Shown here: one piece after another, positions 28,220-44,795 of the stretch
How positions within the stretch are numbered: the stretch's first letter is position 1
Layout of the letters: each line of letters begins with the position of its first letter
From: Planctomycetota bacterium
GTDB lineage: Bacteria > Planctomycetota > UBA1135
DNA: 64,000 bases
Reading direction: 5' to 3'
Assembly (NCBI GenBank): GCA_045047305.1
Contig: JASFYO010000003.1
Coordinates: 1 to 64,000, forward strand
The notes under the pieces: generated by a model
The model's input: only the letters and a program-made list of their open reading frames with translations
Database searches by the model: none
What the model was told of the DNA's origin: nothing
Translations under genes and position numbers: made by a program

Positions 28220-29073
28220 TGGGGTTCTGGCGCGCCTTCCAGGGGGAGATTTACCTGCTACGCAAGCGACGTACCGTGCGCTGGGTACACTTTGGAGTCT
28301 TCCTAGTGGCAGTTCTTTTTGTAGCGGGTTCGCGGCTCAAGCTGGGAATTATGATGGCCGCTGGTTCTGGTGGCCCCACCGAAGTCGGAGCATGGAACTT
28401 TTGGCCCCAGTTTGCTGAAGGCACCCGGGCGGGGCTGTACCTAGTTGAGATTTCTATTCTGCTTCTTCTCGCAGGAGGGCTACCCAGGGAGATTCGCTCC
28501 GGCTCCATCCGCGATCCACTTTCGCGACGGATTTCACGCAACGCCTATACCGCTGCGCGTTGTTTGATTGGGCTGATCCTGCCTCTCAGCCTCTACCTTT
28601 TTGCATTGCTGGGCGCCGCGCTTGCTGCATCGGTGTTGTTTGACGCTGGCGACATTATGGAAGATGGCGAAGTCCTTCTTTCCATCGTTGATGATCAAGT
28701 CGCTTTCCATCTTTATCGCTCTATGTTACATGCGGTACCACCGTTGTTAGCGCTGGGATTATTCAGCGTATGGATGTCCACTGCCTTCCGCACTGGTGTT
28801 GCGGCAGTTGGCGTGGGCCTTGGCGTCATCCTGGCGCCAACTTTGCTGCACAGTGTTTTAGGTGATCGTGCGCCTTGGTTGTTCACCGATCTTCTGCCTG
28901 CACTAGGCCCAGATTCTTATCTGCAACGCACCGCTGGCTTCGCTGCTGGTTATGCTGATGCCTACCCATACGAGTTTGATGAAGTCGTCAAGCTCGGTTG
29001 GTTCACTCCTTGGCCGGCCTTCCTAATTGCTGGAGCTGGTGCCATCCTGATGTTTCGACGCAAACCTGTATGA
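28216..29073 (+). CDS. ABC-2 type permease
   Basis: About 6 TM helices, EIRSGSIR EAA-like loop; coupled to the ATPase. Confidence 0.8.
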   Translation: MMGFWRAFQGEIYLLRKRRTVRWVHFGVFLVAVLFVAGSRLKLGIMMAAGSGGPTEVGAWNFWPQFAEGTRAGLYLVEISILLLLAGGLPREIRSGSIRDPLSRRISRNAYTAARCLIGLILPLSLYLFALLGAALAASVLFDAGDIMEDGEVLLSIVDDQVAFHLYRSMLHAVPPLLALGLFSVWMSTAFRTGVAAVGVGLGVILAPTLLHSVLGDRAPWLFTDLLPALGPDSYLQRTAGFAAGYADAYPYEFDEVVKLGWFTPWPAFLIAGAGAILMFRRKPV

Positions 29074-30005: not shown

Positions 30006-31498
30006 TCCTTAGCCTTGTATTTGCCTTAATGCAAGATGTGGGGCACCTAGTCTCCTTTGTACAACCTTCTGGCAGCTTGTTGGATGCGCGCACTTTCGGC
30101 GATTACGATGGCGATGGCGATTTGGACTTATTCCAAGCCGTGTTGGCTAAGAGCGGCAAGCGTTACATCGATGTCCATTTCCAGAAAGACGGCCAGGCCT
30201 TTTCTGCTGCACCCGATTTGCACCTGGAAATGTCGCCGCAGTTAGTGGCTTGGAATGTAGGCGACTTTCTTTCTGGAGAGGGGGAGGAGGGAGTCGAAAT
30301 TTTGTTACTGGCAAGTCGAGGGGCTTACATCCGTCAGCATTCCGGTCGCTTAAAACGTTTTAGCCAAGCACCCATTTCGATGCTCCTGGATATGCCTTCG
30401 AGCCAGGAATTGCCGTTATGGAATCCGGTTGCTGACATCGATGGCGATGGCAAGCCAGAGGTCGTGGTCGCCACTGGGGATGGCTTTCGGATTTTGGACG
30501 ATGACGGTAGTACCGTCGGTGAAATCCGCGTCGGGGTGACCGATGACCGTGCACCAGTCGCCACCGGAAACTATTTGGGCGGCCTTATCCACACTACGAT
30601 TGGCAGCCAAGAGCTTGGAACCCTGTTTGTGCCCAATGAGGATTTGGGGGTGATTGCGCGCCCGCCCGCGCTGTTCACGGCTAATTATTTGCCATCGCCA
30701 GTGTGGGCCGATGTTGATGGTGATGGCCTGCTTGATCTCACTTATCTACGCAAGAACAAGCTAAGTTTGTTTATTCAAAATGCGGAAGGAAAATTCCCGA
30801 AGAAGGCATCGCAAGTGATTGAGCTGCCCGACAACGGTGAGGCTGATTTTGAACAAGTGGAGTGGATGGACCTCGGTGGAGGCCCAGCCGCAGATTTACT
30901 CTTCGTCCGCAGTAGTGCTGATTTCTTAAAGCAATCGCGTCCATGGCAGGTCCGTTTCTATCTTGATCCAGCGCAAAAGGAGAATCTTGAGTATGCCGAC
31001 GCCTTCCTCAAGGTTAGCTCCACCTTTTTGTGGGTATTCGCGAAAGACCTCAATGCTGATGGACGTAAGGATATCTGTCTATCCAATTGGAAACTGGATC
31101 TCGGGCTTTTGGGTCAAGGCGCTCCGCAGGTGCAACATGACATCAATGGCTTTCTGGCCGATAAAAATGGGTGGGCCAATCGTCCAGCCTTTGTGTGGAC
31201 GCGCACTTATAAGGTCGAGGACTTTGATTCCTTCATTACCTTGGATTCTTTCGTGGATGACCTCACCGGCGATGGCCAACCCGATTTTTTGGAGCGATCG
31301 AAATCGGGCAATCTAGAAGTGCGTCGCTTTGTGGGGACTGAGACTAAGGTGCAGGTCGATGATGAGATCGTCGCCGAAATTCCGATTCAAGCTTTGCAAG
31401 CCTCCGTTGATGTGCAAGATTTAAACGCTGATGGCATTGGTGACTTCATCATTCAACGCGATGGCAATCTCGAAATCCACCTTTCTTACCGCCGATGA
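30002..31498 (+). CDS. FG-GAP/VCBS repeat protein
   Basis: Multiple DxDGDG repeats (DYDGDGDLD, DIDGDGKPE, DVDGDGLLD, DLNADG). Confidence 0.85.
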   Translation: MILSLVFALMQDVGHLVSFVQPSGSLLDARTFGDYDGDGDLDLFQAVLAKSGKRYIDVHFQKDGQAFSAAPDLHLEMSPQLVAWNVGDFLSGEGEEGVEILLLASRGAYIRQHSGRLKRFSQAPISMLLDMPSSQELPLWNPVADIDGDGKPEVVVATGDGFRILDDDGSTVGEIRVGVTDDRAPVATGNYLGGLIHTTIGSQELGTLFVPNEDLGVIARPPALFTANYLPSPVWADVDGDGLLDLTYLRKNKLSLFIQNAEGKFPKKASQVIELPDNGEADFEQVEWMDLGGGPAADLLFVRSSADFLKQSRPWQVRFYLDPAQKENLEYADAFLKVSSTFLWVFAKDLNADGRKDICLSNWKLDLGLLGQGAPQVQHDINGFLADKNGWANRPAFVWTRTYKVEDFDSFITLDSFVDDLTGDGQPDFLERSKSGNLEVRRFVGTETKVQVDDEIVAEIPIQALQASVDVQDLNADGIGDFIIQRDGNLEIHLSYRR

Positions 31499-33090
31499 TT
31501 AGCACCCTTCTACTCGCGTTTTGTCTTCAAGCACCCGCAGCGATTGAAGGTCTTAGCGCTCAAGACTTAATTCCTCTAGATTTTGGTAAGCCGTTTTCTC
31601 ACATGGCGATTGCGAGTCTGGATGGAACCAAGGTGGGCCATATGCTTGCGATTGAAAAGAACGAGGTGCGTTTGCTGGAGGGCGATGTACACCCAACCCT
31701 GGAACTGCCTGGTGAGGCCACTTTGTGGACCATGGCGGACCTCGATGGCAATGGGCTAGAAGAGTTGATCGTTCTCGTCGATGGCAAGGAGTTGCGGCGC
31801 CTGAATCTAGTAGGGGATGTTTTTTCGCTTTCTGAACCGTTGCTCGATGGATTACGCGGTGTGCCTCCACGCGGATGTCATGCTGGATCTTTTTTGCGTG
31901 ACTTAGACCAAGATGGGCATCCGGATTTGCTTTTGCCTATGGGGGATCGTTTGCAGTTGTGGATGGGTGAAGGCGACACCTTCACCGCAGGACCTGATTT
32001 AGGTTCGATCTCTCGTTTGGAACTGCGCACGGATCGTGGGCTCATGGGCAAGGTTGGCCGAAAACTTGTGGTGCCACAATTGCTGCCGGAAGACATCAGT
32101 GGTGACGGGCGCCCAGACCTCACGGTGAGTGATGGCTTGCAAATTCGGCAGTTTGTACTTGGGGACTCAGGGTTTCCAAGTGAACCGACCCGGAGCCTAG
32201 ACCTCTCTCGTTTTCGCGCCGACATGAATGATTTTGGCGTCGACCTTGGCAACCTAACCAGCTCGATTCGATACCTGGTGCAGGACAAGTGGGCGGATCT
32301 CAATGGCGATGGCGCGATGGATTTACTAATCCTTGCGGATGGCCGCATTCGTGTTTTCCTCGGTGGTGAAGATGGTGTCGACCTCGCGCGTGAGCGCACC
32401 CGACTGAAAGTGCGCGGGAATGTGTTTTACATTTACCCAGCGCGCATCGATAACGACAATATCCCCGACTTGGTGTTGGTGCGGGTCGAAGATTTGGGAC
32501 TCGGTAAGCTTTTACGTGCAGCCTTGTTTTCTTGGGAGATCGAGTTCGATTTTTTGGTTTTCCGCGGCAAGGGTGACGGCGATTTTGAAAAACGGCCTTT
32601 TCGCGAACGCTCAGCGAATTTAAAGGGTGATTCTCTGGTTTCTACTTACAAAGGCGAAAAAGACCAGTTTAATAGTTTGCGCCAGAATGTTGTGCGCATG
32701 TGTGATTACGACGGCGATGGCATCCGCACAGACTTGGTCACTCTTGGTGCTGGAGGACGGCTACAGGTGTGGCTAAACCTAGTTTCCGATGAGTCGGTCC
32801 TGCACGGAGCGATCGAGAAGTTTCTTCAGCAAACTCTCGCTGGGGATGGTGACCTTGATGTCGGAATATCCACTCTCACCCAGTGGACTCTTGGCCGTAC
32901 TTCTGCCATGACCTCCATGACTCATGGGATTGAGCCGGACTTAGATATTCGTCTTGAAAACTGGGCGGAACCCCACGCCCTAACCATCCGCGATTTGGAT
33001 GGCGACGGGCGTGAGGAAGTTTTGGCCGTGCGCCTGGTCTCTCCCGACAAAGGCGAGAAAAGCCTGGTCGGGTATTTGCTGCGCTTCTAG
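31495..33090 (+). CDS. FG-GAP/VCBS repeat protein
   Basis: Signal peptide; DLDGNG, DLDQDG, DISGDG, DLNGDG, DLDGDG repeats. Confidence 0.85.
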   Translation: MISTLLLAFCLQAPAAIEGLSAQDLIPLDFGKPFSHMAIASLDGTKVGHMLAIEKNEVRLLEGDVHPTLELPGEATLWTMADLDGNGLEELIVLVDGKELRRLNLVGDVFSLSEPLLDGLRGVPPRGCHAGSFLRDLDQDGHPDLLLPMGDRLQLWMGEGDTFTAGPDLGSISRLELRTDRGLMGKVGRKLVVPQLLPEDISGDGRPDLTVSDGLQIRQFVLGDSGFPSEPTRSLDLSRFRADMNDFGVDLGNLTSSIRYLVQDKWADLNGDGAMDLLILADGRIRVFLGGEDGVDLARERTRLKVRGNVFYIYPARIDNDNIPDLVLVRVEDLGLGKLLRAALFSWEIEFDFLVFRGKGDGDFEKRPFRERSANLKGDSLVSTYKGEKDQFNSLRQNVVRMCDYDGDGIRTDLVTLGAGGRLQVWLNLVSDESVLHGAIEKFLQQTLAGDGDLDVGISTLTQWTLGRTSAMTSMTHGIEPDLDIRLENWAEPHALTIRDLDGDGREEVLAVRLVSPDKGEKSLVGYLLRF

Positions 33091-34562
33091 TCGAGTTGTG
33101 TCCACAAGGCCTTGAGATAGCGGCCTTCGGGGAAGTCGATACGTACTGGGTGGTCTGGACCGGCTCCCGTTTCCCGCAGTACACGAATGGTGCGCAAACG
33201 CGCCGCGCGGCGGATGATTTCCTGAAAGGTGAGTGGTTCAAGGAGGCCGCTGCAGGAACAACTGATGAAGAAACCGCCATCCTTCACCAAAGGAATCGCA
33301 AGCTTGTTGATGTCGTTGTACTTCGCTTTTCCCTCTTCAAAGTCACGCCGGCTGCGAATGAACTTTGGCGGGTCCACGATCACAATGTCGAATTGCTTGC
33401 CGTTGTTGGCTAGCGTACGCAAGTAGCTGAATGCATCGGCATGGGTGAACTTGATGTTCTTCAGATGATTGATGTTCGCATTGCGCTTGGCTTGCTCAAT
33501 TGCTTTCTCATCCAGGTCGATACCGCGCACCTCACTTGCGCCAGCAGCAGCGGCATTCAGAGAGAAGCCTCCGGTGTAAGAACAAACGTCCAGCACCGAG
33601 GGTGGGTTGCCCGCATCCGCCAATCGCTTGACTAAGGCTGCAAGGCGTGCGCGGTTTTCACGTTGGTCACAGAAGAAGCCGGTCTTATGGCCTTCCGCCT
33701 GGAACACTTCATAGGTGATGGCGCCTTCTTCAAACTGAAAGCGTGGCGGACAGCCTGCCGAGCGCTTTTCAAAGGGGATTCCACCTTCGGCTCGCGCTGC
33801 TGTTTCATCGTAGACCACACGGTGCTCTTTGGTGCCAAGTACCTCGTGGAAGGTCGGAAGCACCAATTCGAAGATATCCGCCATGGGCTCGGAGTAAGCC
33901 TCGGCGACTAGAAGCTCTCCGTAACGGTCCATGGTTAGCGCTGGGAAATCATCGCCTTCTGCGTGCAGGATACGACAAACTTCATTTGGAATGTCAGGGT
34001 CTGCTATGCGGCGTTCTGCAGCAGCACGCGCGCGCTCATGCCAGAATTCTTCCGTTGGCTCGGAATTGTCACGCGTGACCAAGCGCACCGCAATGCGCGA
34101 GTGCGGGTGAAAAAAACCCCAACCGCGGAAGTCTTGGTACTGGTCATATACAGCAACCATAGTGCCAGCCTTATGCCGCGCGGAAGTGCGGTCGACATCG
34201 CCGGACCAAACGCGGGGGCCACGCATCGGACCACGCAAAGTCACCCACGGCTCCATGCGTTCGACTGTACGGCCGGATTCACGCTCCTTGTCGCGACGCC
34301 ATTGGCCGCCACCACTGCGTCCGGAGGATTCATGGCCACGTGCACCATGTCCCCCACGGTCGTCGCGGCCGTAGTTACGGCGCCCGTCATTGCGGTCATC
34401 ATCATCGCTGTCGCGGTCGCTGCGGTGGGTGTCGTCGGAGTCACGGCCGCCGCCGCGATATGAATCTCGTCCGCCACGATCATCGCGGCGAGAATCACGT
34501 TGTCCGCCATCTTGACGAGAATCGCGGTTGCCGCTGCCGGCGTTGTCCCAAGGGCTAGCCAT
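33087..34562 (-). CDS. rlmI: RlmI/RlmK-like SAM-dependent rRNA methyltransferase with R/D/G-rich N-terminal extension
   Basis: AEGDDFP, GHKTGFFCDQRENR, LDVCSYTGGF, VDPPKF, CSCS, GPDHP..EGRYLK. Confidence 0.85.
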   Translation of the reverse strand: MASPWDNAGSGNRDSRQDGGQRDSRRDDRGGRDSYRGGGRDSDDTHRSDRDSDDDDRNDGRRNYGRDDRGGHGARGHESSGRSGGGQWRRDKERESGRTVERMEPWVTLRGPMRGPRVWSGDVDRTSARHKAGTMVAVYDQYQDFRGWGFFHPHSRIAVRLVTRDNSEPTEEFWHERARAAAERRIADPDIPNEVCRILHAEGDDFPALTMDRYGELLVAEAYSEPMADIFELVLPTFHEVLGTKEHRVVYDETAARAEGGIPFEKRSAGCPPRFQFEEGAITYEVFQAEGHKTGFFCDQRENRARLAALVKRLADAGNPPSVLDVCSYTGGFSLNAAAAGASEVRGIDLDEKAIEQAKRNANINHLKNIKFTHADAFSYLRTLANNGKQFDIVIVDPPKFIRSRRDFEEGKAKYNDINKLAIPLVKDGGFFISCSCSGLLEPLTFQEIIRRAARLRTIRVLRETGAGPDHPVRIDFPEGRYLKALWTQLD

Positions 34563-34564
34563 GT

Positions 34565-34972
34565 TTATTTACCTCCGAGCTTTTTGAATTTCTCGAATTG
34601 AGTTTTATTCAGCGGCATCACGGAAAGCCGGGTTTGTTTGACTAGGGCTGATTCGGCCAAGGTTTTGTCGGCGCGTACTGTGGCCAAAGTCACGGGTTCT
34701 GCAAATGCGATTTGCACTTCAAGGTCCACCGCGGTCCAGTCACCATCGGTGGCAGTCGGGTCTGGATAACCTTCACCAATTACTTTGGCCGTGCCCATCG
34801 CGGACTTGAGCTTTCCCGAGTGGTAGAACACCACGCCGTCGCCCTTTTTCATTAAGCGAAGGTTGTTGCGCGCCTGATAATTACGCACGCCATCCCAACA
34901 GGTGCTGCCATCTTTGAGGAACATCTCAAAGGTGTATTTCGTGGGTTCTTCCTTTACCAGCCAGTATGCCAT
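34565..34972 (-). CDS. EVE domain protein
   Basis: YWLVKEEP, WDGVRNYQARN, FYHS, RLSVMP. Confidence 0.93.
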   Translation of the reverse strand: MAYWLVKEEPTKYTFEMFLKDGSTCWDGVRNYQARNNLRLMKKGDGVVFYHSGKLKSAMGTAKVIGEGYPDPTATDGDWTAVDLEVQIAFAEPVTLATVRADKTLAESALVKQTRLSVMPLNKTQFEKFKKLGGK

Positions 34973-35032
34973 GGGGGGAATTCTAACCGCGTCGCGGGGG
35001 CTTAAGTAGGCGGGAGAGATAGACTAAGCATC

Positions 35033-35878
35033 ATGGGTGAACGCCTAGCCGATTACGACCGTTTGAAGCTCGAAGAGCTCAATTACAACAGCTACCTGAA
35101 GATTCCGGAGCTGACTTCGCTGCAGGAATTGCGTAGTGATCCGGTGCACCACGATGAAATGTTTTTCATCGTCATCCACCAGAGTTTTGAGCTCTGGTTT
35201 AAGGAGATGCTCCACGAAGCCGGTCTTATGGTCCAGTGCTTTGAAAAAGGAGACATCGCCCACTCGCTGAAGGTTCTAAAGCGCATTCAGGCCATTTTGA
35301 CCTGCCTGACGCAGCAGATTCAGCTGCTCGGCACGCTAACCCCAGAGGAGTTTGCTGGCTTTCGTGAGGCCTTAGGTACAGGCAGCGGCTTTCAGTCGGT
35401 ACAGTTTCGTGAAATGGAATTCGTCTGTGGTCAGCGGGATCCTTGGTTCTTCCAGTTTTTTGAGAATCAGCCGGATGAACTCGCCCGCTTGAGAGCACGC
35501 TTTGAGGCTCCAAGCCTGTATGATTTTTTCCTGCGCGCCATGGCGCGGGAGGGATATGCCGTCCCCCAAGCCATTCTGGAACGGGATTTGTCGGAGACCC
35601 ACAGCATGAACGATGAACTCGTCATCGTTTTTCGCGATCTCTACCAGAACCCTGGAAATAACTATCACTGGGTACTCGCCTGCGAAGCCCTTCTCGATCT
35701 CGACACCATGTGGTCAAACTTCCGCTCCGCGCACATCCTGATGGTATCGCGCACGATTGGCGGCAAGAAGGGCACTGGCGGGTCTAGTGGCGTCCCATTC
35801 CTGGAATCGCGTCTGCCGCTGCGCTTTTTCCCCGAGTTATGGGAAATGCGGAATGCCGAATGGAACACCAATAAGTAA
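35033..35878 (+). CDS. kynA: Tryptophan 2,3-dioxygenase
   Basis: YNSYL, HDEMFFIVIHQSFELWFK, SGFQSVQFR, H....RTIG.K.GTGGSSG. Confidence 0.95.
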   Translation: MGERLADYDRLKLEELNYNSYLKIPELTSLQELRSDPVHHDEMFFIVIHQSFELWFKEMLHEAGLMVQCFEKGDIAHSLKVLKRIQAILTCLTQQIQLLGTLTPEEFAGFREALGTGSGFQSVQFREMEFVCGQRDPWFFQFFENQPDELARLRARFEAPSLYDFFLRAMAREGYAVPQAILERDLSETHSMNDELVIVFRDLYQNPGNNYHWVLACEALLDLDTMWSNFRSAHILMVSRTIGGKKGTGGSSGVPFLESRLPLRFFPELWEMRNAEWNTNK

Positions 35879-35882
35879 AACC

Positions 35883-36674
35883 GTGACACTCTCTCAATCT
35901 CTTAACGGCAAGCACGCATTGGTGTGTGGTGCAAGCTCTGGCATCGGACGTGAAATCGCCTTAGCCATGGCGGCGCAAGGTGCCCGTTTGTCCTTTTTTG
36001 CTCGTTCCGCCGAAAAGTTAACCGTGCTTGCTGAAGAGTGCCTCGCTGTAGGCGCCGAAACAGCTGTCGGTTTCCCTGTCGATCTCGAAGATGCCGACGC
36101 CCTCGCCTCCGCCACTGCCAGCGTCTTGCAGCAGGCAGGTCCGGTACACATTCTGATTAACAATAGTGGTGGGCCTCCTGGGGGGCCTTTGCTGAACGCT
36201 TTCGTGGAGGACTTCCTTGCGCCTTTGCGCCGGCATTTGTTTGCCGCACATTATTTGGTGCAGCAGCTTGTCGCCGGGATGCAGGAAGAGGGATACGGTC
36301 GTATTCTCAATATTATTTCGACTTCCGTGAAAGAGCCGATTGCTGGATTAGGCGTTTCCAACACGGTGCGTGGGGCGGTTGCGGCATGGGCTAAAACTTT
36401 GTCCAAGGAGTTGCCTACTTGCGTCACCATTAACAATCTCTTACCCGGTTTTACTGCTACCGACCGATTGGATTCCTTGCGTGAAACCGTCGCCGGGCGT
36501 CAGGGGATTTCGGCCGACGAAGTCGAAGCCAACTGGCTGGCCACCGTGCCTGCCGGACGCTTAGGCGATCCGCGAGAACTCGCCGCGCTTGCTGCATTTC
36601 TCGCCAGCCCAGCAGGTGCCTTTGTGCGTGGCCAATCGATTGCGGTCGACGGAGGCCGCCTCAACGGAATCTAG
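35883..36674 (+). CDS. Atypical SDR oxidoreductase
   Basis: GASSGIG, NNSGGP, SNTVR in place of YxxxK, PG...T.R, VDGG; GTG start 4 nt after the kynA stop. Confidence 0.88.
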   Translation: MTLSQSLNGKHALVCGASSGIGREIALAMAAQGARLSFFARSAEKLTVLAEECLAVGAETAVGFPVDLEDADALASATASVLQQAGPVHILINNSGGPPGGPLLNAFVEDFLAPLRRHLFAAHYLVQQLVAGMQEEGYGRILNIISTSVKEPIAGLGVSNTVRGAVAAWAKTLSKELPTCVTINNLLPGFTATDRLDSLRETVAGRQGISADEVEANWLATVPAGRLGDPRELAALAAFLASPAGAFVRGQSIAVDGGRLNGI

Positions 36675-36682
36675 ACCCCATC

Positions 36683-37921
36683 ATGCATTTCGACGTCTTC
36701 TTCTCCATTTGCCAAACACCGGTTGCGGGGTACGCCCCCGATGAAGCGACCATGTTTCGCAACTTCTTTGACCAGGTGAAGGTTGCCGACGACTTGGGCT
36801 ACGAATGTGCATGGATCGCGGAGTCGCACCTCTCCACCGAAGTGCAGAAGACCAACCGTCGCCCGGTGGTGCCTCACTTTCAGGGCGAGGTCGGGCTCAA
36901 CGTCGATATCACCCAGTTGGCGCACAAGGTTTTTGCAACCACCAAAAATATCGAGGTGGGAGCTGCAGTGATGAACATCGTGTGTAACGGTGGCCCGATT
37001 GCTGCCGCAGAGCGTTTGGCCTGTTTCTGCGCTCTGCACGGTCTCGACCCCAAGGAAACCCGCCGTTTGCGCATTGGATTTTCCATGGGACGCTTTGAGT
37101 TCATGAACCGCGCCTATGCTGTGGATTACCGCGATGCCATCGAAGAAGCTGCATGGCCGGCGTACAAAGGCCAGATGTTCCGTGAGGCTTGCGAGGTATT
37201 CCTGCGGCTACTCCGCGGCGATGTCCTCGATAGCACGCAAACTCCAGATACTGTGCTGACTCGTGCAAACTTCCGTTCCGATGAGGATTGGAACCGCGTG
37301 CAGGAAGCGTGGAAGACTGTCCACGGCGAGGATGCGCCCGACGCCATCCTATTCGCAAAACGCTGGCCTTTTGAATCCATTAAATTGATCCCGCAGGAGT
37401 GGCGGCGCGAGTTGTTGGACTTGATTGTGGGCTCGCATGATCCCGCATTGCAAGAACAGTTGAATGCAATTGCCCCGGTGAAGGTGTTCAACCTTTCGAT
37501 TACTTCCGAGGAGATCATTCATAAAACGCACGAGCGTTTAGCCACCACCTATCACCAAGATGGGGGCGCTTGGCGGCGTGAATACATGCCGCGCACGGTG
37601 ATGGTATTCCTCAATAACGAGGAAGGATTAAGTGGAGCGGAACAATCAGCCGCGGCTTCCAAAGAGGCTGAAGCGGCACTCTCGGAATACTGGAATGCCT
37701 TGGAGGGTACGCTAGACCCGAAAAAAGTCGCCGCTGCCACCGAAAACGCTTTGGTCGGAAATGCGCAGGAAATTGCGCAGCAAGTGCAAGAGCGCTTCCA
37801 CGCGGATGATCGCCTCATGTTGTGGTTCGATTTCTATAACCATGATTCGGCTCGGGTGATGCGCAACATGGAAGCCTTTCAGCGCGTTGTGATTCCTGCC
37901 GTAGAAGGAGCAGCAAAGTGA
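36683..37921 (+). CDS. Luciferase-like (LLM) flavin-dependent monooxygenase
   Basis: ADDLGYECAWIAESH, TKNIEVGAAV, RLRIGFSMG, ALVG..EIAQ; LLM TIM-barrel pattern. Confidence 0.85.
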   Translation: MHFDVFFSICQTPVAGYAPDEATMFRNFFDQVKVADDLGYECAWIAESHLSTEVQKTNRRPVVPHFQGEVGLNVDITQLAHKVFATTKNIEVGAAVMNIVCNGGPIAAAERLACFCALHGLDPKETRRLRIGFSMGRFEFMNRAYAVDYRDAIEEAAWPAYKGQMFREACEVFLRLLRGDVLDSTQTPDTVLTRANFRSDEDWNRVQEAWKTVHGEDAPDAILFAKRWPFESIKLIPQEWRRELLDLIVGSHDPALQEQLNAIAPVKVFNLSITSEEIIHKTHERLATTYHQDGGAWRREYMPRTVMVFLNNEEGLSGAEQSAAASKEAEAALSEYWNALEGTLDPKKVAAATENALVGNAQEIAQQVQERFHADDRLMLWFDFYNHDSARVMRNMEAFQRVVIPAVEGAAK

Positions 37922-39027
37922 GTGCTCCTTCCGGTAAACCTGCACGCCCACGCGATGCCATGTATCCACCTTCCCCGTTGGGCGTGAAGGAGGAGGGCGT
38001 GCCGACCGGGCGCGATGTCGAATGGGAACCGCTGGTCGACTTCCGCCGCGCCGGTGTTTCCGAAACCACTATTCATGGTGCGGTGGCATGGGCCCACGGG
38101 GACGAGGTCTTCCATAGCTTTGGCGGCAACGTTCTGTGTTATGGGCGCTCGATGATGAAACCATTGATGATGAAGGTATTCACTCAAGAGTTGGAAGCCG
38201 ATTTGGATTGGCGTCAGCGCGCGATTGCGGTTGCCTCACACAACGGCGATGCGCAGCACGTGGAAGCGGCGCAGTCCATCCTTGCGGAAAAGGATTGGGG
38301 ACTGATGCAGACGCCCCTGGATGTGCCCTTGGTGCAGTTTGGGCGCCAAGTCCGGCGTCCACGTCGGTGGTTTCACACCTGCAGTGGTGAACATTCCGCA
38401 TTGATCCGTGGGTGCCAACTCAAGGGTTGGGAAGAGGTCGGTTATCTCTTGCCGCAACACCCATTCTTCCACGCCTACGTGGAGCAAATCCGTCGTTATC
38501 TCGGCAGTGACTGGCGCCCTCTGCGTGTGGCGCGCGACGGTTGTGGATTACCAACTTTATCCAACACGGTGGTCGAGCTTGCACAGCTTTACGCTGGACT
38601 CGCGCGCGACCGTGATGAAGATTGGATTTGGGAAGCCATGCAGCGCTATCCCGATTTGGTTGGTGGCTTCAATCGCCTGGATTCCACCATCTTGAAATCA
38701 GGCAAAGGTCTGGTGCTGGCGAAAGAGGGCGCCGATGGCCTGCTTGGTCTTTCCATCGTGCATCCGGATTACCCCAAGGGGCTTGGCATCGTGGTGAAAA
38801 TCGCACACGGCTGGAATTCGCAAGCCACTTGGTACATCGCACGTGGCTTGCTTGGTGTTCTTGGAATCGAGTTGCGCAACCCCTACGCATTGCATCGTCA
38901 GAAAGCCTTTTTGGTGCCAGGAATGGTGCCCGAATCCATGCTCGGTAAACTTGCCGAGATTCCAACTTGGGATGAATGGGATCCCGACCGTGAACGTTAC
39001 GACTTCGATTGGGAGCCTTACCTATGA
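37918..39027 (+). CDS. Class-3 (Rhizobium etli-type, asparaginase_II) asparaginase homolog
   Basis: RSMMKP, ASHNG, TCSGEH (normally NCSGKH), DGCG, AKEGADG. Confidence 0.85.
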   Translation: MSAPSGKPARPRDAMYPPSPLGVKEEGVPTGRDVEWEPLVDFRRAGVSETTIHGAVAWAHGDEVFHSFGGNVLCYGRSMMKPLMMKVFTQELEADLDWRQRAIAVASHNGDAQHVEAAQSILAEKDWGLMQTPLDVPLVQFGRQVRRPRRWFHTCSGEHSALIRGCQLKGWEEVGYLLPQHPFFHAYVEQIRRYLGSDWRPLRVARDGCGLPTLSNTVVELAQLYAGLARDRDEDWIWEAMQRYPDLVGGFNRLDSTILKSGKGLVLAKEGADGLLGLSIVHPDYPKGLGIVVKIAHGWNSQATWYIARGLLGVLGIELRNPYALHRQKAFLVPGMVPESMLGKLAEIPTWDEWDPDRERYDFDWEPYL

Positions 39028-40430
39028 GCAGAACCACTGATAACTGGATTGATGGAGCGATGGCTGCGCCGGAGAGCGGTGCTTACTTGGACAACATCGA
39101 TCCGAAAACTGGAACCGTGTGCGGCAAGATTGCGCGCAGTGGTGCCGCCGACGTCGAGCGTGCGGTTACAGCAGCAGCAGCAGCTCCGCGCTTGTCTGTA
39201 AACGACCGCAGTGCATTGTTGATTGCGGTTGCCGATGCCGTCGCCAAGCGAATTCCAGAGTTTGCAGCTGCCGAAGCGGAAGATAGTGGCAAAACCTTGG
39301 CTGCAACCACCAACGGCGACATCCCTCGGGCTTTAGATAACTTGCGCTACTTTGCCGCCGCAGTGCGTAGTGATCAAACTGCTTGCCATCAAATGGAAGA
39401 TGGTTTGAACTACACATTACGGCAGCCTTTGGGGGTGATTGCAGCGATTACCCCGTGGAATTTCCCACTACACCTATTTACTTGGAAGCTTGCGCCGGCC
39501 ATCGCCATGGGCAATGCCGTGGTGGCAAAACCAAGCGAGATGACCCCGTCTACCGCCACCATGTTCGCCGAGGTGTTTTCCGAAGTCGGCGCACCGAACG
39601 GTTTATTGAACGTGGTGCATGGCCTTGGTGCGGAAGCGGGGGAGCCGTTGGTGACCGATCCCCGTATCAAGGCAGTCTCTTTCACGGGTGGAACTGCTAC
39701 TGGGAAACGTATTGCTAGCCAAGCTGCGCCATTGCTGAAAAAGGTGAGCCTTGAGCTCGGTGGCAAAAACCCAAGCTTAGTTTTTGCCGACTGCGATGTA
39801 CACAAAGCAGCTGCTGGTGTGGCACGTGCCGCTTTCTTCAACACTGGGCAAGTTTGCCTTTGCGGTTCGCGCCTTTTGGTGGAGGCTTCGATTCACGACG
39901 ATTTTGTGGAAGCCCTGAAACAGCAAGTTGAGAGCGGGGATTGGACTCCCGGTGGCTCCATGGGGTCGTTGATCTCCTTTGAACACCGTGAAAAGGTTGC
40001 CTCCTACGTCGACCTTGCGCGGCAAGAAGGTGGCACGGTTGTTTTTGGCGGCCATAAGGTTGGCCCTGAAGGCGGTGCTTTTTTTGAACCGACACTGATC
40101 ACTGGTTTGCCCATCGATTGTCGTACAGCTACCGAGGAAATCTTTGGGCCGGTGGTTACGGTACACCCTTTCAGCACTGAAGCCGAGGCCTTGTCGATGG
40201 CGAACGCCGTGGACTATGGACTAGCATCTTCCATTTGGACTCAGGACATCACTCGCGCGCACCGTCTTGCCGCCGATATTGAGTCTGGCATGGTGTGGAT
40301 TAACACTTGGAATAAACGCGACTTCCGGGTGCCCTTCGGTGGCATGAAACAAAGTGGCGTCGGCCGGGAAGGTGGACGCTACGCCATGGAGTTCTTCTCG
40401 CAAGACCGCAACATCTGCATTCAACTTTGA
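39024..40430 (+). CDS. amnC: 2-aminomuconate 6-semialdehyde dehydrogenase (HMSADH/ALDH8-like)
   Basis: DIPRA..N, PWNFP, FTGGT, LELGGKNP, GQVCLCGSR, EEIFGP, RD.R.PFGGMK; context. Confidence 0.85.
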   Translation: MSRTTDNWIDGAMAAPESGAYLDNIDPKTGTVCGKIARSGAADVERAVTAAAAAPRLSVNDRSALLIAVADAVAKRIPEFAAAEAEDSGKTLAATTNGDIPRALDNLRYFAAAVRSDQTACHQMEDGLNYTLRQPLGVIAAITPWNFPLHLFTWKLAPAIAMGNAVVAKPSEMTPSTATMFAEVFSEVGAPNGLLNVVHGLGAEAGEPLVTDPRIKAVSFTGGTATGKRIASQAAPLLKKVSLELGGKNPSLVFADCDVHKAAAGVARAAFFNTGQVCLCGSRLLVEASIHDDFVEALKQQVESGDWTPGGSMGSLISFEHREKVASYVDLARQEGGTVVFGGHKVGPEGGAFFEPTLITGLPIDCRTATEEIFGPVVTVHPFSTEAEALSMANAVDYGLASSIWTQDITRAHRLAADIESGMVWINTWNKRDFRVPFGGMKQSGVGREGGRYAMEFFSQDRNICIQL

Positions 40431-40432
40431 TC

Positions 40433-41341
40433 ATGAATGAGCCAGGAAGAATCGTTACCGGATGCCTTGCCCCGCATCCACCACACCTCGTATACGCTTC
40501 GAATCCAGAGCAAAATGAGCCCAGGTCGAGTGGCGCTGGAGCCTGGAAACCGTTGTTGGATGGCTACGCGCGGCTACGTGAGAGCATTCAAAACCGTGAG
40601 TACGATGTCATCATTGTGCATACCCCGCACTGGAAGACCACGGTCGGGCACCATCTTTTGGGGGTGCCCCATTTCGAAGGACTGTCGGTAGATCCAATCT
40701 TCCCCAATCTGTTCCGTTTTCATTTCGACCTGAATGTCGATGTGGATCTCGCTGAGGCCATTTGCGCCGAGGCCGAAACCGAAGGCCTGGTGATGGGCAT
40801 GATGCGTAACCCCGAGTTTCGGGTGGACTATGGAACCATCACCTCGAGCTACTTGGTGCGCCCAGAATTCGATTTGCCGATTGTGGCGATTAGTTCGGCG
40901 CGGACCTATTTCGACTACAGCGATGAAGCCGGCGAACGGGAAATGCTTGCGCTTGGTGCTGCAACCAAACGTGCGGTGGAGAAGTCCGGCAAGAAAGCCT
41001 TGTTGCTTGCAAGTTGCTCCTTGAGCCATCGGCACTTCACCGATGAGCCGTCGGATCCGGAAGACCCAAGTTTTGAAGGCATCTATAACGCCAATCAAGG
41101 CAAGTGGGACCGCCACATGATGGCCATGATGGAGGCAGGGGACACCGCCCGATTGCTTGAGGAAATGCCAGACTTTATTGCCCAAGCGATTTCAGAATGT
41201 CGCGATGGCAGCCTTACATGGATGCTTGCCGCTATGGATATGCCAACCATCCCCGCAAAGATTCATGGTTATGGAACGGTGATTGGAACCGGCAATGCGG
41301 TCGTGGAGTGGGATTTAGAAGGCGCAGAGGTGAAGGCATGA
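40433..41341 (+). CDS. amnB: 2-aminophenol 1,6-dioxygenase, catalytic beta subunit (LigB family)
   Basis: LAPHPPHLVY..NP.QNEP, HTPHW, SVDPIFPNLFR, RVDYGT, LSHRHF; matches the AmnB/CnbCb pattern. Confidence 0.9.
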   Translation: MNEPGRIVTGCLAPHPPHLVYASNPEQNEPRSSGAGAWKPLLDGYARLRESIQNREYDVIIVHTPHWKTTVGHHLLGVPHFEGLSVDPIFPNLFRFHFDLNVDVDLAEAICAEAETEGLVMGMMRNPEFRVDYGTITSSYLVRPEFDLPIVAISSARTYFDYSDEAGEREMLALGAATKRAVEKSGKKALLLASCSLSHRHFTDEPSDPEDPSFEGIYNANQGKWDRHMMAMMEAGDTARLLEEMPDFIAQAISECRDGSLTWMLAAMDMPTIPAKIHGYGTVIGTGNAVVEWDLEGAEVKA

Positions 41342-42273
41342 GCGAAGGCTATGTTGTAGGTGCCTACTTGGTGCCAAATCAGCCGCTGCCTCTCCTGGCG
41401 CCGGAACAATCCCCTGCGTGGCAGTCCTTGCATGATTCCTACGCTAAGGTACGTGAGGAAATAGAAGCCTCGGAAGCCGATTTGATTCTCATTTTCAGCA
41501 CGCGTTGGGTGAGCATCATTGGACATCAAATGCAGGCTGATCCAGAGCCTGATTTCTGGGTCGTGGACGAAGACTTTCATCAGTTTGGCAGCCTGCACTA
41601 CAAGCTTAAGATTGATGCCGGTTTCGCCAGCCTTTACCGCGATTGTGCCCAAGCGCGTGGCTTGGAAGCGCGCACTGTGGCTTACCAAGGGTTCCCCATC
41701 GATGTCGGCAGCATCACGGCCTTAAAGCTGCTTAACCCCGACAACCGCATCCCTGCAGGCATCGTTTCTTGCAATGTGTATTCCGACCGCGCCGAAACTT
41801 TGGTGCTTGGAAAGGCTGCTGCCGATGCGATTAAAAAGAGTGGACGCAAAGTTATTCTGCTCGGAGTTTCTGCATTGTCCAATCGCATGTTTACGGAGTG
41901 GATTGATCCAAAAGAGGACCACATTCATTCATTGAAGGACGATGAATGGAATCGCAAAATCCTAGAACTGCTAGGTGAAGGGCGTTTGGAAGATGTTTCG
42001 CAACTCTCTCGCGAGTTTAGCCGCCAGGCGAATGGCGATTCCAAGATGAAGGCGATTTGGTGGATGGCGTCTGCGATGGGCCAAAGCAATGACTATCGCG
42101 GCACGGTGTTTGACTATCAGCCGGTTTGGGGGACGGGCGCGGCACTCGTTGGATTAACTCCTGCCACCAAACTCGGCGGCGGCTTGGAGTACGATGAAGA
42201 CGACACTGAGTATTACCGCGGGGATCGCAATGTCCTTGCTAGCGTCAAGAAAGAAGAGGTAAATCCATCATGA
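41338..42273 (+). CDS. amnA: 2-aminophenol 1,6-dioxygenase, alpha subunit
   Basis: AYLVP..PLP.L.PE...W, FSTRW, Y.GFPID.G, D.WN..IL, WGTGAA; lacks Fe-binding His as AmnA does. Confidence 0.88.
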   Translation: MSEGYVVGAYLVPNQPLPLLAPEQSPAWQSLHDSYAKVREEIEASEADLILIFSTRWVSIIGHQMQADPEPDFWVVDEDFHQFGSLHYKLKIDAGFASLYRDCAQARGLEARTVAYQGFPIDVGSITALKLLNPDNRIPAGIVSCNVYSDRAETLVLGKAAADAIKKSGRKVILLGVSALSNRMFTEWIDPKEDHIHSLKDDEWNRKILELLGEGRLEDVSQLSREFSRQANGDSKMKAIWWMASAMGQSNDYRGTVFDYQPVWGTGAALVGLTPATKLGGGLEYDEDDTEYYRGDRNVLASVKKEEVNPS

Positions 42274-42698
42274 GCCATCCCATCCGCACTCATAAAGCGC
42301 CTGATCCAGTCGGTGCCTACCCACACGCCCGACGCCACGGCGACCTCCTCTTTCTTTCTGGAGTAGGGCCGCGCCAAGCTGGCACCAATGCTATCCCGGG
42401 TGGCCCCATCCACGACGCGGATGGCAATCCCAACGATTACGATATCCAAGCTCAAACCGAAGCCGTCATCGCCAACGTGAAAGCGGTGCTCGAAGCTTGC
42501 GGTGCGACCTTAGATGATGTTCTAGATGTCACCGTCTATCTGATTGACATGGACCGTGACTTCAAAGGTTACAATAAGGTCTACGCGAAGCACTTCACCA
42601 CGGTTCAGGCTGCACGTACCACCTTGGCGATTCGCGCCCTGCCAACACCGATTGCGGTGGAGTTCAAAGTCATTGCTCAAGCGCCTTCCGCAAAATGA
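42270..42698 (+). CDS. amnD: RidA-family protein, probable 2-aminomuconate deaminase
   Basis: PVGAYPHA..GDLLFLSG.GPR, YL.DM.RDF..YN, RTT....LPTPIAVEFK; context. Confidence 0.8.
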   Translation: MSHPIRTHKAPDPVGAYPHARRHGDLLFLSGVGPRQAGTNAIPGGPIHDADGNPNDYDIQAQTEAVIANVKAVLEACGATLDDVLDVTVYLIDMDRDFKGYNKVYAKHFTTVQAARTTLAIRALPTPIAVEFKVIAQAPSAK

Positions 42699-43312
42699 TT
42701 ATTGATATCAGCCCTGTGATTAGTGCCCGGATTGGCGTTTGGCCAGGGGATACGGGGTTTTCGCGGGAGGTTTGCCTGGATACGAATCAAGGCGATCACA
42801 TCACCTTAAGCGCGATTCAAACCACGTTGCACTTAGGGGCTCATGTCGATGCGCCAAACCATTATCGTGCCGGCGCCAAGGCCATCCATGAACGTGCCTT
42901 GGAGCGTTATTACGGCCCATGCCAAGTGGTGCACGTTGACTTGCCACGAGGTACACGGATCCGCCCGGAGCATTTGAAGGTAGCGATTGAGGCTCCAAGA
43001 GTCTTATTTCATACTGGGAGTTTTCCAAACCCAGAGTCTTGGAACTCGGATTTCAATGCACTGAGCAAAGAATTAGTAGATGACTTGCAGGCGCAAGGGG
43101 TCGACCTGATTGGAATTGATACGCCCTCCATTGATTTGCAAGACGACAAGGTGTTGCAGTCCCACCAAGCGATTGCCAATCATGATATGGCCATCCTTGA
43201 AGGCGTCGTTCTCACCTCTGTTGAGCCTGGCTTGTACACTTTGTGCGCTTTGCCGTTGCCGCTTGAAGGCGCCGATGCCTCGCCGGTCCGCGCCGTTCTC
43301 ATCCGCGACTAA
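42695..43312 (+). CDS. kynB: Kynurenine formamidase (cyclase family)
   Basis: IDIS, WPGD, HLGAHVDAP.H, GIDTPSID, ILEG, DASPVRA. Confidence 0.9.
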   Translation: MIIDISPVISARIGVWPGDTGFSREVCLDTNQGDHITLSAIQTTLHLGAHVDAPNHYRAGAKAIHERALERYYGPCQVVHVDLPRGTRIRPEHLKVAIEAPRVLFHTGSFPNPESWNSDFNALSKELVDDLQAQGVDLIGIDTPSIDLQDDKVLQSHQAIANHDMAILEGVVLTSVEPGLYTLCALPLPLEGADASPVRAVLIRD

Positions 43313-43582
43313 CTAGCGAGTCGCGTCTTCGGGATCTTCGCGCCAAGAACCGACCACGCGCTTCATCACCTGCTCGAAGTCCTCGGGTAAATCGGAGGGC
43401 GCTGGGTGATCGGTAATTTCACGGACCTGCCGATATTGCTTTAGGTAGGCGCGGCATGGGGGACACATCATGAGGTGCCCGCTGACGAAAATGCGCTCCC
43501 AAAGGCTTACCTCTCTATCCAGATAGCGATCTAGGGCCGCATAGAGGTGATCGCAACGGAGTAGGAGGTCTTTAGAAGGCAT
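43313..43582 (-). CDS. zf-HC2 zinc-finger (anti-sigma-like) small protein
   Basis: C....L..YLD.E......HLMMCPPC (HxxxCxxC); start moved to ATG 43582. Confidence 0.8.
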   Translation of the reverse strand: MPSKDLLLRCDHLYAALDRYLDREVSLWERIFVSGHLMMCPPCRAYLKQYRQVREITDHPAPSDLPEDFEQVMKRVVGSWREDPEDATR

Positions 43583-43693
43583 GGTCTTCCATATCTTCGC
43601 ATTTCCAGCTTGGGCGTGACAGAGTTTCTGGCTTGAAAGCAATCGGGCTTCGGTTATCCTCGGGACACCCCCCAAATCTGATAAGAGCCCATC

Positions 43694-43816
43694 ATGAAAC
43701 TAAAAGCTTGTTTGTCCTTCTTGTTTTTGATCCTTGCACTTGGCGCTTGTTCGAGCGATTCTTCTGATGATACGGAAGGAAACGCTCAAAACGGGGTCGA
43801 CGAATTGGATTATTAA
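43694..43816 (+). CDS. 40-aa acidic lipoprotein, not in ORF track
   Basis: MKLKACLSFLFLILALGACSSDSSDDTEGNAQNGVDELDY*; LGAC lipobox. Confidence 0.7.
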   Translation: MKLKACLSFLFLILALGACSSDSSDDTEGNAQNGVDELDY

Positions 43817-43836
43817 AACAGAAAATTCCCGCTTAA

Positions 43837-43854
43837 ACCGTGTAATTACGCGGT
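43837..43854. promoter_or_regulatory. Near-perfect 18-bp palindrome, possible regulator site
   Basis: ACCGTGTAATTACGCGGT matches its reverse complement at 16 of 18 positions; AT-rich intergenic region. Confidence 0.35.
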
Positions 43855-43952
43855 AAAAAGAGGTGGATTGAGTTTTTTCTGTTAACCAACTGGGTGTCGT
43901 TCGTATGCTTCCACATACGGCCGGCTCCCTGGCCCGTTAATCACGTAAGCAG

Positions 43953-44564
43953 ATGAACACTCCAAAATTCAACTTAACCCTCCTTCTTCTTGGACTTGCG
44001 GCATTTGTCGCAACCCCATCTTCCTCTTTTGCACAAGAAGATAAAGGTGGTGTGGAATCAACCCAAGGGGTTGATACCGGCGAAGTCCAAGGCACCGTTG
44101 AGAAGATCAATCAAGATGCTGGCGAAGCCCAAGGCAAAGCTGGTAAGAAAGGCAAGAAAGGTCTTGGTGGCGGAAAAACCACCAAAGAGCAGCGCCAGTT
44201 GATGCACGCCGTTGCCGCAGAAATGGGCAAGTACCGCGCAAACACGGCACGCTTGGCTCAAGCCCGCAGCGTTGGCGAAAGGAAGAATAACGCCGACTTG
44301 ATCAAGAAGGCCAATGAGATGGCGCCGAAGTTGGAAGCCCAGCACAAGGAAGCTATGGATGCTTTACGCGCCAAATATGGCGAAAAAGAGGTGGCTGCAG
44401 TGGTCGAACGCCTGAATAGCCAATCCAAGTCCGACATCAAGAAACATAAAAAGTTTGCTGGCGATGCCACCAAGAAGGGCAATAAACAAGCCAAGGAAAC
44501 CAAAGGCAAAGGCAAGAAAAAGCAAAAGCACCGCGAAGGAAAAGAAGAAGGTTCTGACTCCTAA
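43953..44564 (+). CDS. Secreted Lys-rich helical hypothetical protein
   Basis: Sec signal (SFA/QED), K/G-rich tracts on both sides of a helical core. Confidence 0.8.
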   Translation: MNTPKFNLTLLLLGLAAFVATPSSSFAQEDKGGVESTQGVDTGEVQGTVEKINQDAGEAQGKAGKKGKKGLGGGKTTKEQRQLMHAVAAEMGKYRANTARLAQARSVGERKNNADLIKKANEMAPKLEAQHKEAMDALRAKYGEKEVAAVVERLNSQSKSDIKKHKKFAGDATKKGNKQAKETKGKGKKKQKHREGKEEGSDS

Positions 44565-44588
44565 ATAACCCCCAAACACAACAACACA

Positions 44589-44792
44589 ATGTCCAAACTG
44601 TTAACTCTTACCTGCCTTTTCGGCGCGCTGACATTTGCCAGTTGCTCCGGCGAGGAAAAACCTGCCGACATCACCACCACCGATGAAGCAGCAACTGTTA
44701 TTTCCGAAAGTGATGCCGCTGCAAACGCAGCAGAAGAAATCACCGACGAAGCAGCCGCGAATGCTGCACTAGACAGCATGCTTGACGGCTAA
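44589..44792 (+). CDS. Small acidic Ala-rich lipoprotein
   Basis: FASC lipobox; repeated TDEAA and AAANAA. Confidence 0.75.
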   Translation: MSKLLTLTCLFGALTFASCSGEEKPADITTTDEAATVISESDAAANAAEEITDEAAANAALDSMLDG

Positions 44793-44795
44793 ACC

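Follow-up and report, generated by a model that had tools for sequence, protein, structure and literature searches.

A conserved gene module between tryptophan dioxygenase and 2-aminophenol cleavage, proposed as a variant kynurenine pathway in bacteria and Marine Group II archaea

The canonical kynurenine pathway leads from tryptophan 2,3-dioxygenase (TDO) and a formamidase through kynurenine 3-monooxygenase (KMO), kynureninase, 3-hydroxyanthranilate 3,4-dioxygenase (HAAO) and 2-amino-3-carboxymuconate-6-semialdehyde decarboxylase (ACMSD) to 2-aminomuconate-6-semialdehyde dehydrogenase (AMSDH), and to our knowledge every described oxidative tryptophan route passes through kynureninase. In organisms with amn/cnb clusters, nitrobenzene or chloronitrobenzene is the source of 2-aminophenol, and genes for 4-oxalocrotonate decarboxylase, hydratase and aldolase follow in the cluster. 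We analysed a stretch of 64,000 nucleotides from a Planctomycetota bacterium of the UBA1135 lineage (the window; assembly GCA_045047305.1, contig JASFYO010000003.1, positions 1 to 64,000) and identified nine closely packed genes on the + strand at 35033-43312, in the order TDO-SDR-LLM-ASPG2-amnC-amnB-amnA-RidA-type deaminase-kynB, in which an atypical short-chain dehydrogenase/reductase (SDR), a luciferase-like flavin monooxygenase (LLM) and an asparaginase homolog (ASPG2) stand together with genes of both systems:

35033..35878, + strand: TDO (kynA), short bacterial form of 281 amino acids (aa), first gene of the operon (PF03301, E 3e-51; TIGR03036, 276.7 bits, under the cut-off of 390.7)
35883..36674, + strand: atypical SDR, fourth conserved member of the module (PF13561/PF00106; likely GTG start at 35883, read from the sequence)
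36683..37921, + strand: divergent LLM, 412 aa, ATG start (PF00296, 35.6 bits)
37918..37921, + strand: overlap of the LLM stop and the ASPG2 start, GTGA (read directly from the sequence)
37918..39027, + strand: ASPG2, class-3 (Rhizobium-type) asparaginase homolog, 369 aa, GTG start (PF06089, 156 bits)
39024..40430, + strand: 2-aminomuconate-6-semialdehyde dehydrogenase, amnC (438 bits to 4i1w; TIGR03216, 532 bits, under its cut-off)
40427..41341, + strand: 2-aminophenol 1,6-dioxygenase beta (catalytic) subunit, amnB, LigB-type (348 bits, E 5e-103, to 8ihg_A)
41338..42273, + strand: 2-aminophenol 1,6-dioxygenase alpha subunit, amnA, LigB-type (191 bits, E 2e-55, to 7txy_A)
42270..42698, + strand: RidA/YjgF-family protein, probable 2-aminomuconate deaminase (PF01042; best PDB match 6izh, a 2-aminomuconate deaminase, E 1.3e-26, 96 bits)
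42695..43312, + strand: kynurenine (aryl)formamidase, kynB, cyclase type, last gene of the operon (TIGR03035, 203.6 bits, cut-off 223; PF04199)

Genes within the operon overlap by 4 bases or are separated by at most 9 bases. The likely GTG start of the SDR lies 5 bases past the TDO stop, the mechanical open reading frame (ORF) beginning at 35757. An earlier reading of these letters made without database searches (the sequence-only reading) had placed a GTGA overlap between LLM and ASPG2 at 37918 and the pair directly ahead of amnC-B-A. Bases 37918-37921 are indeed GTGA, with the GTG start lying over the TGA stop, and by their PDB matches amnC, amnB and amnA are true amn homologs. The family calls of that reading, LLM monooxygenase and asparaginase homolog, hold by Pfam profiles and by structure alignment of AlphaFold2 (AF2) models. 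The ATG of amnC (39024) overlaps the ASPG2 stop as ATGA (39024-39027), and the genes after amnC likewise overlap by 4 bases. TDO and KynB bracket LLM, ASPG2 and amnCBA-D. The operon therefore covers the steps leading into kynurenine and those that take 2-aminophenol to 2-aminomuconate and further, with nothing canonical in between.

Compared with the canonical pathway, the operon has the same start and the same semialdehyde dehydrogenase and deaminase steps, whereas the four middle enzymes were not found in the genome carrying the window, which has LLM, ASPG2 and AmnBA instead. AmnB, AmnA, AmnC and the RidA-type deaminase are clear homologs of proteins from the amn/cnb clusters of Pseudomonas sp. 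AP-3 and Comamonas (8ihg, 3vsg, 7txy, 4i1w, 6izh), from which the operon differs in the attached TDO, KynB, SDR, LLM and ASPG2 genes and in that no decarboxylase or aldolase was found in its genome. It is likely that the LLM/ASPG2 pair bridges kynurenine to the Amn enzymes, and in the stretch of the pathway from kynurenine to 2-aminomuconate semialdehyde the module very probably takes over from KMO, kynureninase, HAAO and ACMSD. Apart from a few, the genomes considered here are metagenome-assembled genomes of incomplete assembly, and absence means that a gene was not found in those searched. The genome carrying the window (87.7% complete) yielded no kynureninase (TIGR01814) and no cupin-type 3-hydroxyanthranilate dioxygenase (PF06052), the latter a weak negative as the PF06052 control matched in no genome. 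Two candidates from the same genome were rejected: the best FAD_binding_3 match, considered as KMO, is geranylgeranyl-reductase-like, leaving no KMO-like flavoprotein, and the Amidohydro_2 match C49, considered as ACMSD, adjoins a ROK kinase and has no ACMSD-type match, leaving no ACMSD equivalog.

Relatives of LLM and ASPG2 number thousands in metagenomes and occur in Planctomycetota, Myxococcota, Alphaproteobacteria-labelled bins and Poseidoniales/Thermoplasmatota archaea. With ASPG2 as query, 80 species-level loci from other genomes were fetched (among the matches listed, 545 of 600 stretches encode a relative), and the nine window proteins were mapped onto these loci, which derive from Planctomycetota, Myxococcota, Bdellovibrionota and Marine Group II (MGII)/Thermoplasmatota. 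In the GC-rich loci L024 and L008 some antisense ORFs were picked, and only Pfam-positive rows were used. LLM is present in all 71 loci with at least 1.4 kb upstream of ASPG2 and directly adjacent to it in 68; amnC occurs in each of the 73 loci that extend 1.6 kb or more downstream, in 70 of them adjacent to ASPG2. Orthologs of the SDR (42-83% identity; for example L019:7909-8730, L078:1419-2237 and L005:6689-7489) were found in 59 of the 80 loci, mostly directly upstream of LLM; amnB, amnA and the deaminase gene in 39, 35 and 34, respectively; and TDO and KynB in 11 each. Because many loci are short, the counts for the SDR, amnB, amnA, the deaminase, TDO and KynB are lower bounds. The 4-base overlap of LLM and ASPG2 is not universal, as most other loci have a gap of 30-60 bases. 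The adjacency of the two genes is far beyond chance, and the conserved core is SDR-LLM-ASPG2-amnC with amnBA and the deaminase gene nearby. Homologs of LLM from Planctomycetota, Myxococcota and MGII archaea share 50-98% identity and ASPG2 homologs of the clade 67-95%.

Among 151 genomes of the window's phylum, ASPG2, LLM and AmnB each occur in seven, and these are the same seven genomes (G000, G143, G076, G035, G042, G109 and G131) from six families; in two of them AmnB lies on another contig than LLM and ASPG2. The expectation that the pair travels with amnC and amnBA was thus borne out both by amnC (73/73 loci) and by this shared profile. TDO was found in 70 of the 151 genomes, including all seven with the module, and a kynureninase-like gene (E<=1e-30) in 60, often beside TDO on the same contig, with no match at this threshold in the seven module genomes. 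Among the 70 TDO-positive genomes, 58 have a kynureninase-like gene and none of these the module, while 12 are without it and seven of these have the module (Fisher p 7e-7, a value that overstates the case because related genomes are not independent). Of 101 genomes of the MGII order to which genome G001 belongs, 100 have ASPG2, 99 TDO and two kynureninase. Five module genomes of Myxococcota and Bdellovibrionota and a second set of five module genomes that was checked all have TDO (5/5 and 5/5) and no kynureninase over the cut-off (0/5 and 0/5). Module genomes had been predicted to have TDO without kynureninase, and they do so in all three lineages checked. This is the classic pattern of non-orthologous displacement, in which TDO is followed either by kynureninase or by SDR-LLM-ASPG2-Amn.

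The same profile bears on the possibility that the substrate broken down by the module is a different aromatic amine or amide, for example an N- or O-aryl aspartyl compound of exogenous origin, from dissolved organic matter, the link to tryptophan being incidental and TDO serving another purpose. In MGII the module is adjacent neither to TDO nor to a cyclase-type KynB, amino-acid permease genes stand beside it, and in the window's phylum 63 of the 70 TDO-positive genomes have TDO without the module, all of which would suit such a role. Yet TDO, KynB or both lie inside the operon in Planctomycetota, in Myxococcota and in some Thermoplasmatota loci (each in 11/80), TDO is present in the module genomes throughout (7/7, 5/5 and 5/5, and in MGII in 99 genomes vs 100 with ASPG2), and the module genomes are otherwise without a found enzyme to use kynurenine. 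We consider another substrate quite improbable. The permease genes (AA_permease_2) lie in or beside the MGII module (L021:16400-17833 and L019:12669-14369, one with C-terminal EF-hand motifs), and their products may be importers of tryptophan or kynurenine. Further features of MGII are an alpha/beta-hydrolase gene (BD-FAE / Abhydrolase_3) adjoining the SDR gene in an MGIIa locus (L021:18932-19687, - strand), whose product could be the MGII formamidase or an aryl esterase, and a panB gene (ketopantoate hydroxymethyltransferase, L021:12587-13408) inserted between amnC and amnB in MGIIa loci, for which a link to an aspartate-yielding pathway through beta-alanine supply may be coincidence. MGII TDO (L089-L093, genomes G001-G005) is of a long form, with frames of 355-405 aa that cover nearly the whole Pfam model, and the TDO of the window is short (281 aa).

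ASPG2 is most closely comparable to the class-3 asparaginases ReAV and ReAIV of Rhizobium etli (PF06089; 7os3, 8cly, 9g66), which it matches at 22-24% identity, with an E value of 4e-15 for the single sequence and 1e-21 for a profile. The ASPG2 model aligns to ReAV with a Z score of 28.9 and to ReAIV with 28.4, vs 14 for glutaminases, and its GTG start agrees with the N-terminal consensus of the family in an alignment of clade members. By mutagenesis and structures of complexes, ReAV has Ser48 as nucleophile, Lys51, Ser80 and Lys263 as further essential residues and Arg47 holding the substrate alpha-carboxylate (PMC12292245), together with a Zn site of Cys135, Lys138 and Cys189 that anchors the alpha-amino and alpha-carboxy groups of the substrate (PMC12951835). 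ReAV Arg47, Ser48, Lys51, Ser80 and Lys263 correspond to R77, S78, K81, S107 and K269 of ASPG2, which are invariant in 35 clade sequences, and Cys135, His139, Asp187 and Cys189 correspond to C155, H159, D207 and C209, invariant or nearly so in the same sequences. ASPG2 thus shares with ReAV and ReAIV the fold, both Ser-Lys tandems, the alpha-carboxylate Arg, two Cys metal ligands and the equivalents of His139 and Asp187. As the catalytic residues and the site anchoring the alpha-amino acid are kept, ASPG2 is equipped to bind an Asp- or Asn-like alpha-amino acid and to attack its beta-carbonyl, and a beta-aspartyl-serine acyl-enzyme is expected. Its active site, as judged from these residues, would fit a beta-aspartyl-X substrate. 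The Zn ligand Lys138 is replaced by Glu158 (38389-38391), which is nearly invariant in the clade, so the ligand set of ReAV is not complete in ASPG2. A metal site with a different ligand set is plausible. The Cys-Glu-Cys site of the ASPG2 clade might bind a metal, or an o-hydroxyanilide, differently.

All catalytic residues of ReAV being present, and databases labelling the relatives 'asparaginase' and 'LLM class oxidoreductase', ASPG2 could be taken for an ordinary L-asparaginase that, with an unrelated LLM oxidoreductase, merely stands beside an amn cluster. This explanation is scarcely credible in view of the identical phyletic profile of LLM, ASPG2 and AmnB (7/7 and 0/144) and the adjacency kept across two domains of life. 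ASPG2 is moreover distinct at the sequence level, with the low identity to ReAV and ReAIV given above vs 67-95% within the clade, the clade's own Lys-to-Glu change, and two regions that have no counterpart in the aligned ReAV sequence. One of these, immediately ahead of the metal-binding Cys, is a loop rich in Arg and invariant in sequence (FGRQVRRPRRW, residues 140-151), and the other a conserved acidic/aromatic C-terminal extension (about residues 320-369, with TWDEWDPD at 350-357); model confidence is low in both, and the loop and the C-terminal motif could form a lid or aryl pocket. The genomic context argues for a beta-aspartyl substrate other than L-asparagine, and we propose that ASPG2 is a beta-aspartyl-aryl (anilide or ester) hydrolase, differing from ReAV and ReAIV in its linkage to LLM and amnC and in a proposed leaving group of 2-aminophenol, not ammonia.

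The geometry of this active site also bears on the idea that ASPG2 is a kynurenine hydrolase independent of pyridoxal phosphate (PLP) that releases anthranilate, which LLM would then decarboxylate oxidatively to 2-aminophenol, much as salicylate hydroxylase acts. Such a sequence would likewise lead from kynurenine to the AmnBA substrate and account for the missing kynureninase, and anthranilate had been named by the sequence-only reading as a possible alternative substrate of LLM. As a matter of general knowledge, however, a serine hydrolase cannot cleave the C-C bond of an aryl ketone without carbanion stabilisation of the PLP type, and the asparaginase geometry of ASPG2 places the scissile carbonyl one CH2 from C-alpha and leads one to expect a heteroatom leaving group. 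We regard this order of events as very improbable and prefer for ASPG2 a beta-aspartyl ester or amide delivered by LLM.

LLM is more divergent. PF00296 matches its N-terminal half only (residues 1-180; 35.6 bits, cut-off 27.9), and a PDB sequence search gave no match at E<=1 and no close sequence kinship to known type II Baeyer-Villiger monooxygenases (BVMOs). Matches in the ESM Atlas are unnamed LLM clusters from Thermoplasmatota and Bdellovibrionota and gave no functional lead. An AF2 model built from 40 homologs (pLDDT 91.2) aligns best to the homodimeric luciferase 8cbb_C (Z 29.9, 319 aligned residues, root-mean-square deviation 2.9), followed among others by RslO1 (Z 29.5), LuxA (29.3), MsnO8 (26.1) and 3,6-diketocamphane monooxygenase (3,6-DKCMO, 5aec; 25.7), while F420-dependent dehydrogenases (Z about 24) and RutA (23.3) rank below the luciferases, RslO1 and 3,6-DKCMO. 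That FMN enzymes outrank F420 enzymes among the neighbours of a modelled structure is only a hint of an FMN cofactor. LLM thus shares the TIM-barrel fold of bacterial luciferase and the type II BVMOs (5aec/4uwm, 1luc, 8cbb; Z 29.9-29.3 for luciferases), from which it differs by 11-19% identity, a length of 412 aa with insertions, the lack of a reductase gene nearby and its proposed substrate, an aryl ketone amino acid in place of a bicyclic diketone or aldehyde. In luciferases and type II Baeyer-Villiger enzymes an FMN peroxyflavin attacks a carbonyl carbon, and we propose that LLM is a kynurenine (or N-formylkynurenine) oxygenase.

The fourth member of the conserved core, the SDR, is without the canonical YxxxK motif and has S-N-T-x-R in its place, in which S, N and R are conserved in 59 of 59 sequences (the window and 58 orthologs) and T in 58; the orthologs also share a stretch S-T-S-V-(K/R)-E-P. 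Its relatives in the PDB are an uncharacterised Burkholderia SDR (5va8, 153 bits) and BacG/YwfH of bacilysin biosynthesis (3u49, 122 bits), the nearest characterised protein; both are without YxxxK. The SDR belongs to the same YxxxK-less subgroup as BacG and shares its K/R-E-P motif, at about 30% identity. BacG catalyses the NADPH-dependent conjugate reduction of an olefin that stands in conjugation with a 2-oxo acid. In the genome carrying the window, 4-oxalocrotonate decarboxylase (TIGR03218) gave no match and 4-hydroxy-2-oxovalerate aldolase (TIGR03217) 49 bits vs a cut-off of 286. From the likeness to BacG and the lower meta-cleavage genes not being found, we draw the weak inference that the SDR may reduce 4-oxalocrotonate or 2-aminomuconate towards 2-oxoadipate. 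The SDR was also considered as the flavin reductase of LLM; this was provisionally set aside given its BacG-like nature without YxxxK, and we know of no SDR of the BacG-like type that acts as a flavin reductase.

Taken together, these assignments suggest the following scheme. Genome comparison shows that the module takes kynureninase's place after TDO, and the sequence shows that ASPG2 is suited to an Asp- or Asn-like moiety; we infer the Baeyer-Villiger oxidation, the acyl shift, which products arise and what the SDR does. TDO and KynB would make L-kynurenine, and an FMNH2-dependent LLM would attack its aryl ketone with a flavin peroxide and insert oxygen with aryl migration. When aryl alkyl ketones undergo Baeyer-Villiger oxidation, it is the electron-rich aryl group that migrates. 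LLM is predicted to yield L-aspartate beta-(2-aminophenyl) ester, which could convert by an O-to-N acyl shift into N4-(2-hydroxyphenyl)-L-asparagine. ASPG2 would hold the alpha-amino-acid end on the metal site and Arg77, and Ser78 would attack the beta-carbonyl to yield L-aspartate and 2-aminophenol. AmnBA would then open the ring, AmnC oxidise the semialdehyde and the RidA-type protein deaminate 2-aminomuconate, and the BacG-like SDR may reduce the resulting conjugated 2-oxo acid towards 2-oxoadipate. N-formylkynurenine may equally be the substrate of LLM, with KynB then acting on 2-formamidophenol. The mass balance is the same as in the canonical pathway, as Asp (C4) and 2-aminomuconate semialdehyde (C6) equal Ala, CO2 and the same semialdehyde; the proposed route would differ in its by-product, Asp vs Ala and CO2, and would have no quinolinate/NAD branch. 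The logic resembles that of the 4-hydroxyacetophenone pathway of Pseudomonas fluorescens ACB, in which 4-hydroxyacetophenone monooxygenase (HAPMO) reportedly converts an aryl ketone to an aryl ester by a Baeyer-Villiger reaction, followed by hydrolysis to a phenol and ring cleavage. HAPMO is an enzymatic precedent for the aryl migration; it is a type I FAD/NADPH enzyme, and its esterase is unrelated. In the route proposed here the acyl part would be aspartate and the phenol an aminophenol. The exact chemistry, Baeyer-Villiger oxidation by LLM followed by hydrolysis by ASPG2 to Asp and 2-aminophenol, is the best fit to these data, and we regard it as evenly balanced between right and wrong. The wider proposition, an undescribed main tryptophan route through LLM, ASPG2, Amn and SDR to 2-oxoadipate used by MGII archaea and several marine bacterial lineages in place of the kynureninase route, is advanced tentatively, as a serious possibility to which we stop just short of leaning.

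A different order of steps would account for the same co-occurrence and kynureninase displacement. LLM could be a non-homologous KMO that hydroxylates ring C3, whereupon AmnBA would cleave 3-hydroxykynurenine, itself an o-aminophenol, and ASPG2 would act as a serine C-C hydrolase that cuts 3-acyl-2-aminomuconate semialdehyde via a beta-aspartyl-enzyme to Asp and the AmnC substrate. The adjacency of ASPG2 and amnC in 70 of 73 loci fits this order, the semialdehyde being unstable; a beta-aspartyl moiety would still have to be bound by the ASPG2 site; and no KMO was detected in the genome carrying the window. Speaking against it, ring hydroxylation is atypical of LLM-class enzymes and C-C hydrolysis is not known in the class-3 asparaginase, glutaminase or beta-lactamase fold (both general knowledge), the 348-bit match of AmnB is to enzymes acting on small 2-aminophenols, and the adjacent, here overlapping, pair is LLM and ASPG2, not LLM and amnBA. 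We judge C3 hydroxylation unlikely, though the most serious of the alternatives, and favour oxygen insertion at the kynurenine ketone ahead of ring cleavage. The interpretation offered by the sequence-only reading accordingly stands in part: the genomic predictions, the ASPG2 active site and the structural neighbours of LLM agree with it, while it missed the SDR and the genomic data fit the rival order of steps as well.

Several observations weigh against the proposed scheme, whose support on the chemical side is indirect throughout. For LLM, no NCBIfam subfamily comes near its cut-off, which leaves the protein outside the curated subfamilies; among its structural neighbours 3,6-DKCMO comes only 12th, with 14% identity; the operon shows no flavin reductase gene and no reductase partner was identified; and we know of no LLM that performs a Baeyer-Villiger reaction on an aryl ketone or amino acid. 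For ASPG2, with Lys138 changed to Glu, the way it binds metal and anchors the substrate may not be that of ReAV. The scheme had been held to account for both odd genes of the operon, and it does give roles to LLM and ASPG2, but a third odd gene, the conserved SDR upstream, had no role in it, and the role now proposed for the SDR rests on a 122-bit similarity to BacG and on gene absence in an 87.7%-complete genome. In the window's phylum, five TDO-positive genomes (G030, G045, G072, G121 and G150) have neither a kynureninase-like gene nor the module; these may be incomplete assemblies or represent a third solution. In MGII, TDO is not adjacent to the module, and a cyclase-type KynB was found in none of five genomes checked, so that another formamidase must be assumed there.

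The surroundings of the operon were also inspected. A promoter and terminator scan of 34500-44800 gave counts at or under those of shuffles. Upstream lie genes for a PUA-SAM methyltransferase and an EVE-domain protein (33087-34972, - strand) and downstream a DEAD/DSHCT (Ski2-like) helicase gene (44796-47183, - strand). The operon in locus L005 has the same methyltransferase and helicase flanks, which points to an insertion site common to related planctomycetes. Farther upstream, 27269-33090 (+ strand) encodes an ABC ATPase, an unannotated protein of 285 aa, a PDZ protein and two FG-GAP-repeat proteins (498 and 531 aa), unrelated to the operon.

No literature was found that ties an LLM, a PF06089 protein or 2-aminophenol dioxygenase to kynurenine, or that concerns kynurenine metabolism in MGII, most subscription journals lying outside the search. 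MGII are described as the most abundant archaea of the surface ocean (PMC6461757). We propose a variant kynurenine pathway assembled from known superfamilies with new activities, in which a four-gene core (SDR, LLM, ASPG2 and amnC) with amnBA takes the place of kynureninase in one phylum, in Myxococcota and Bdellovibrionota and in MGII. If this is true, biochemistry would gain two new activities, that of a kynurenine Baeyer-Villiger oxygenase and that of a beta-aspartyl-aminophenol hydrolase, and the class-3 asparaginases, a family little studied so far, would be seen to have a second role in physiology. Thousands of marine genomes, in which these proteins now appear as 'asparaginase' and 'LLM class oxidoreductase', would be annotated differently by automatic means. 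The pathway would also explain why organisms that otherwise have no kynurenine pathway carry TDO, and would give an uncultured archaeal group a directly testable trait of amino-acid catabolism.

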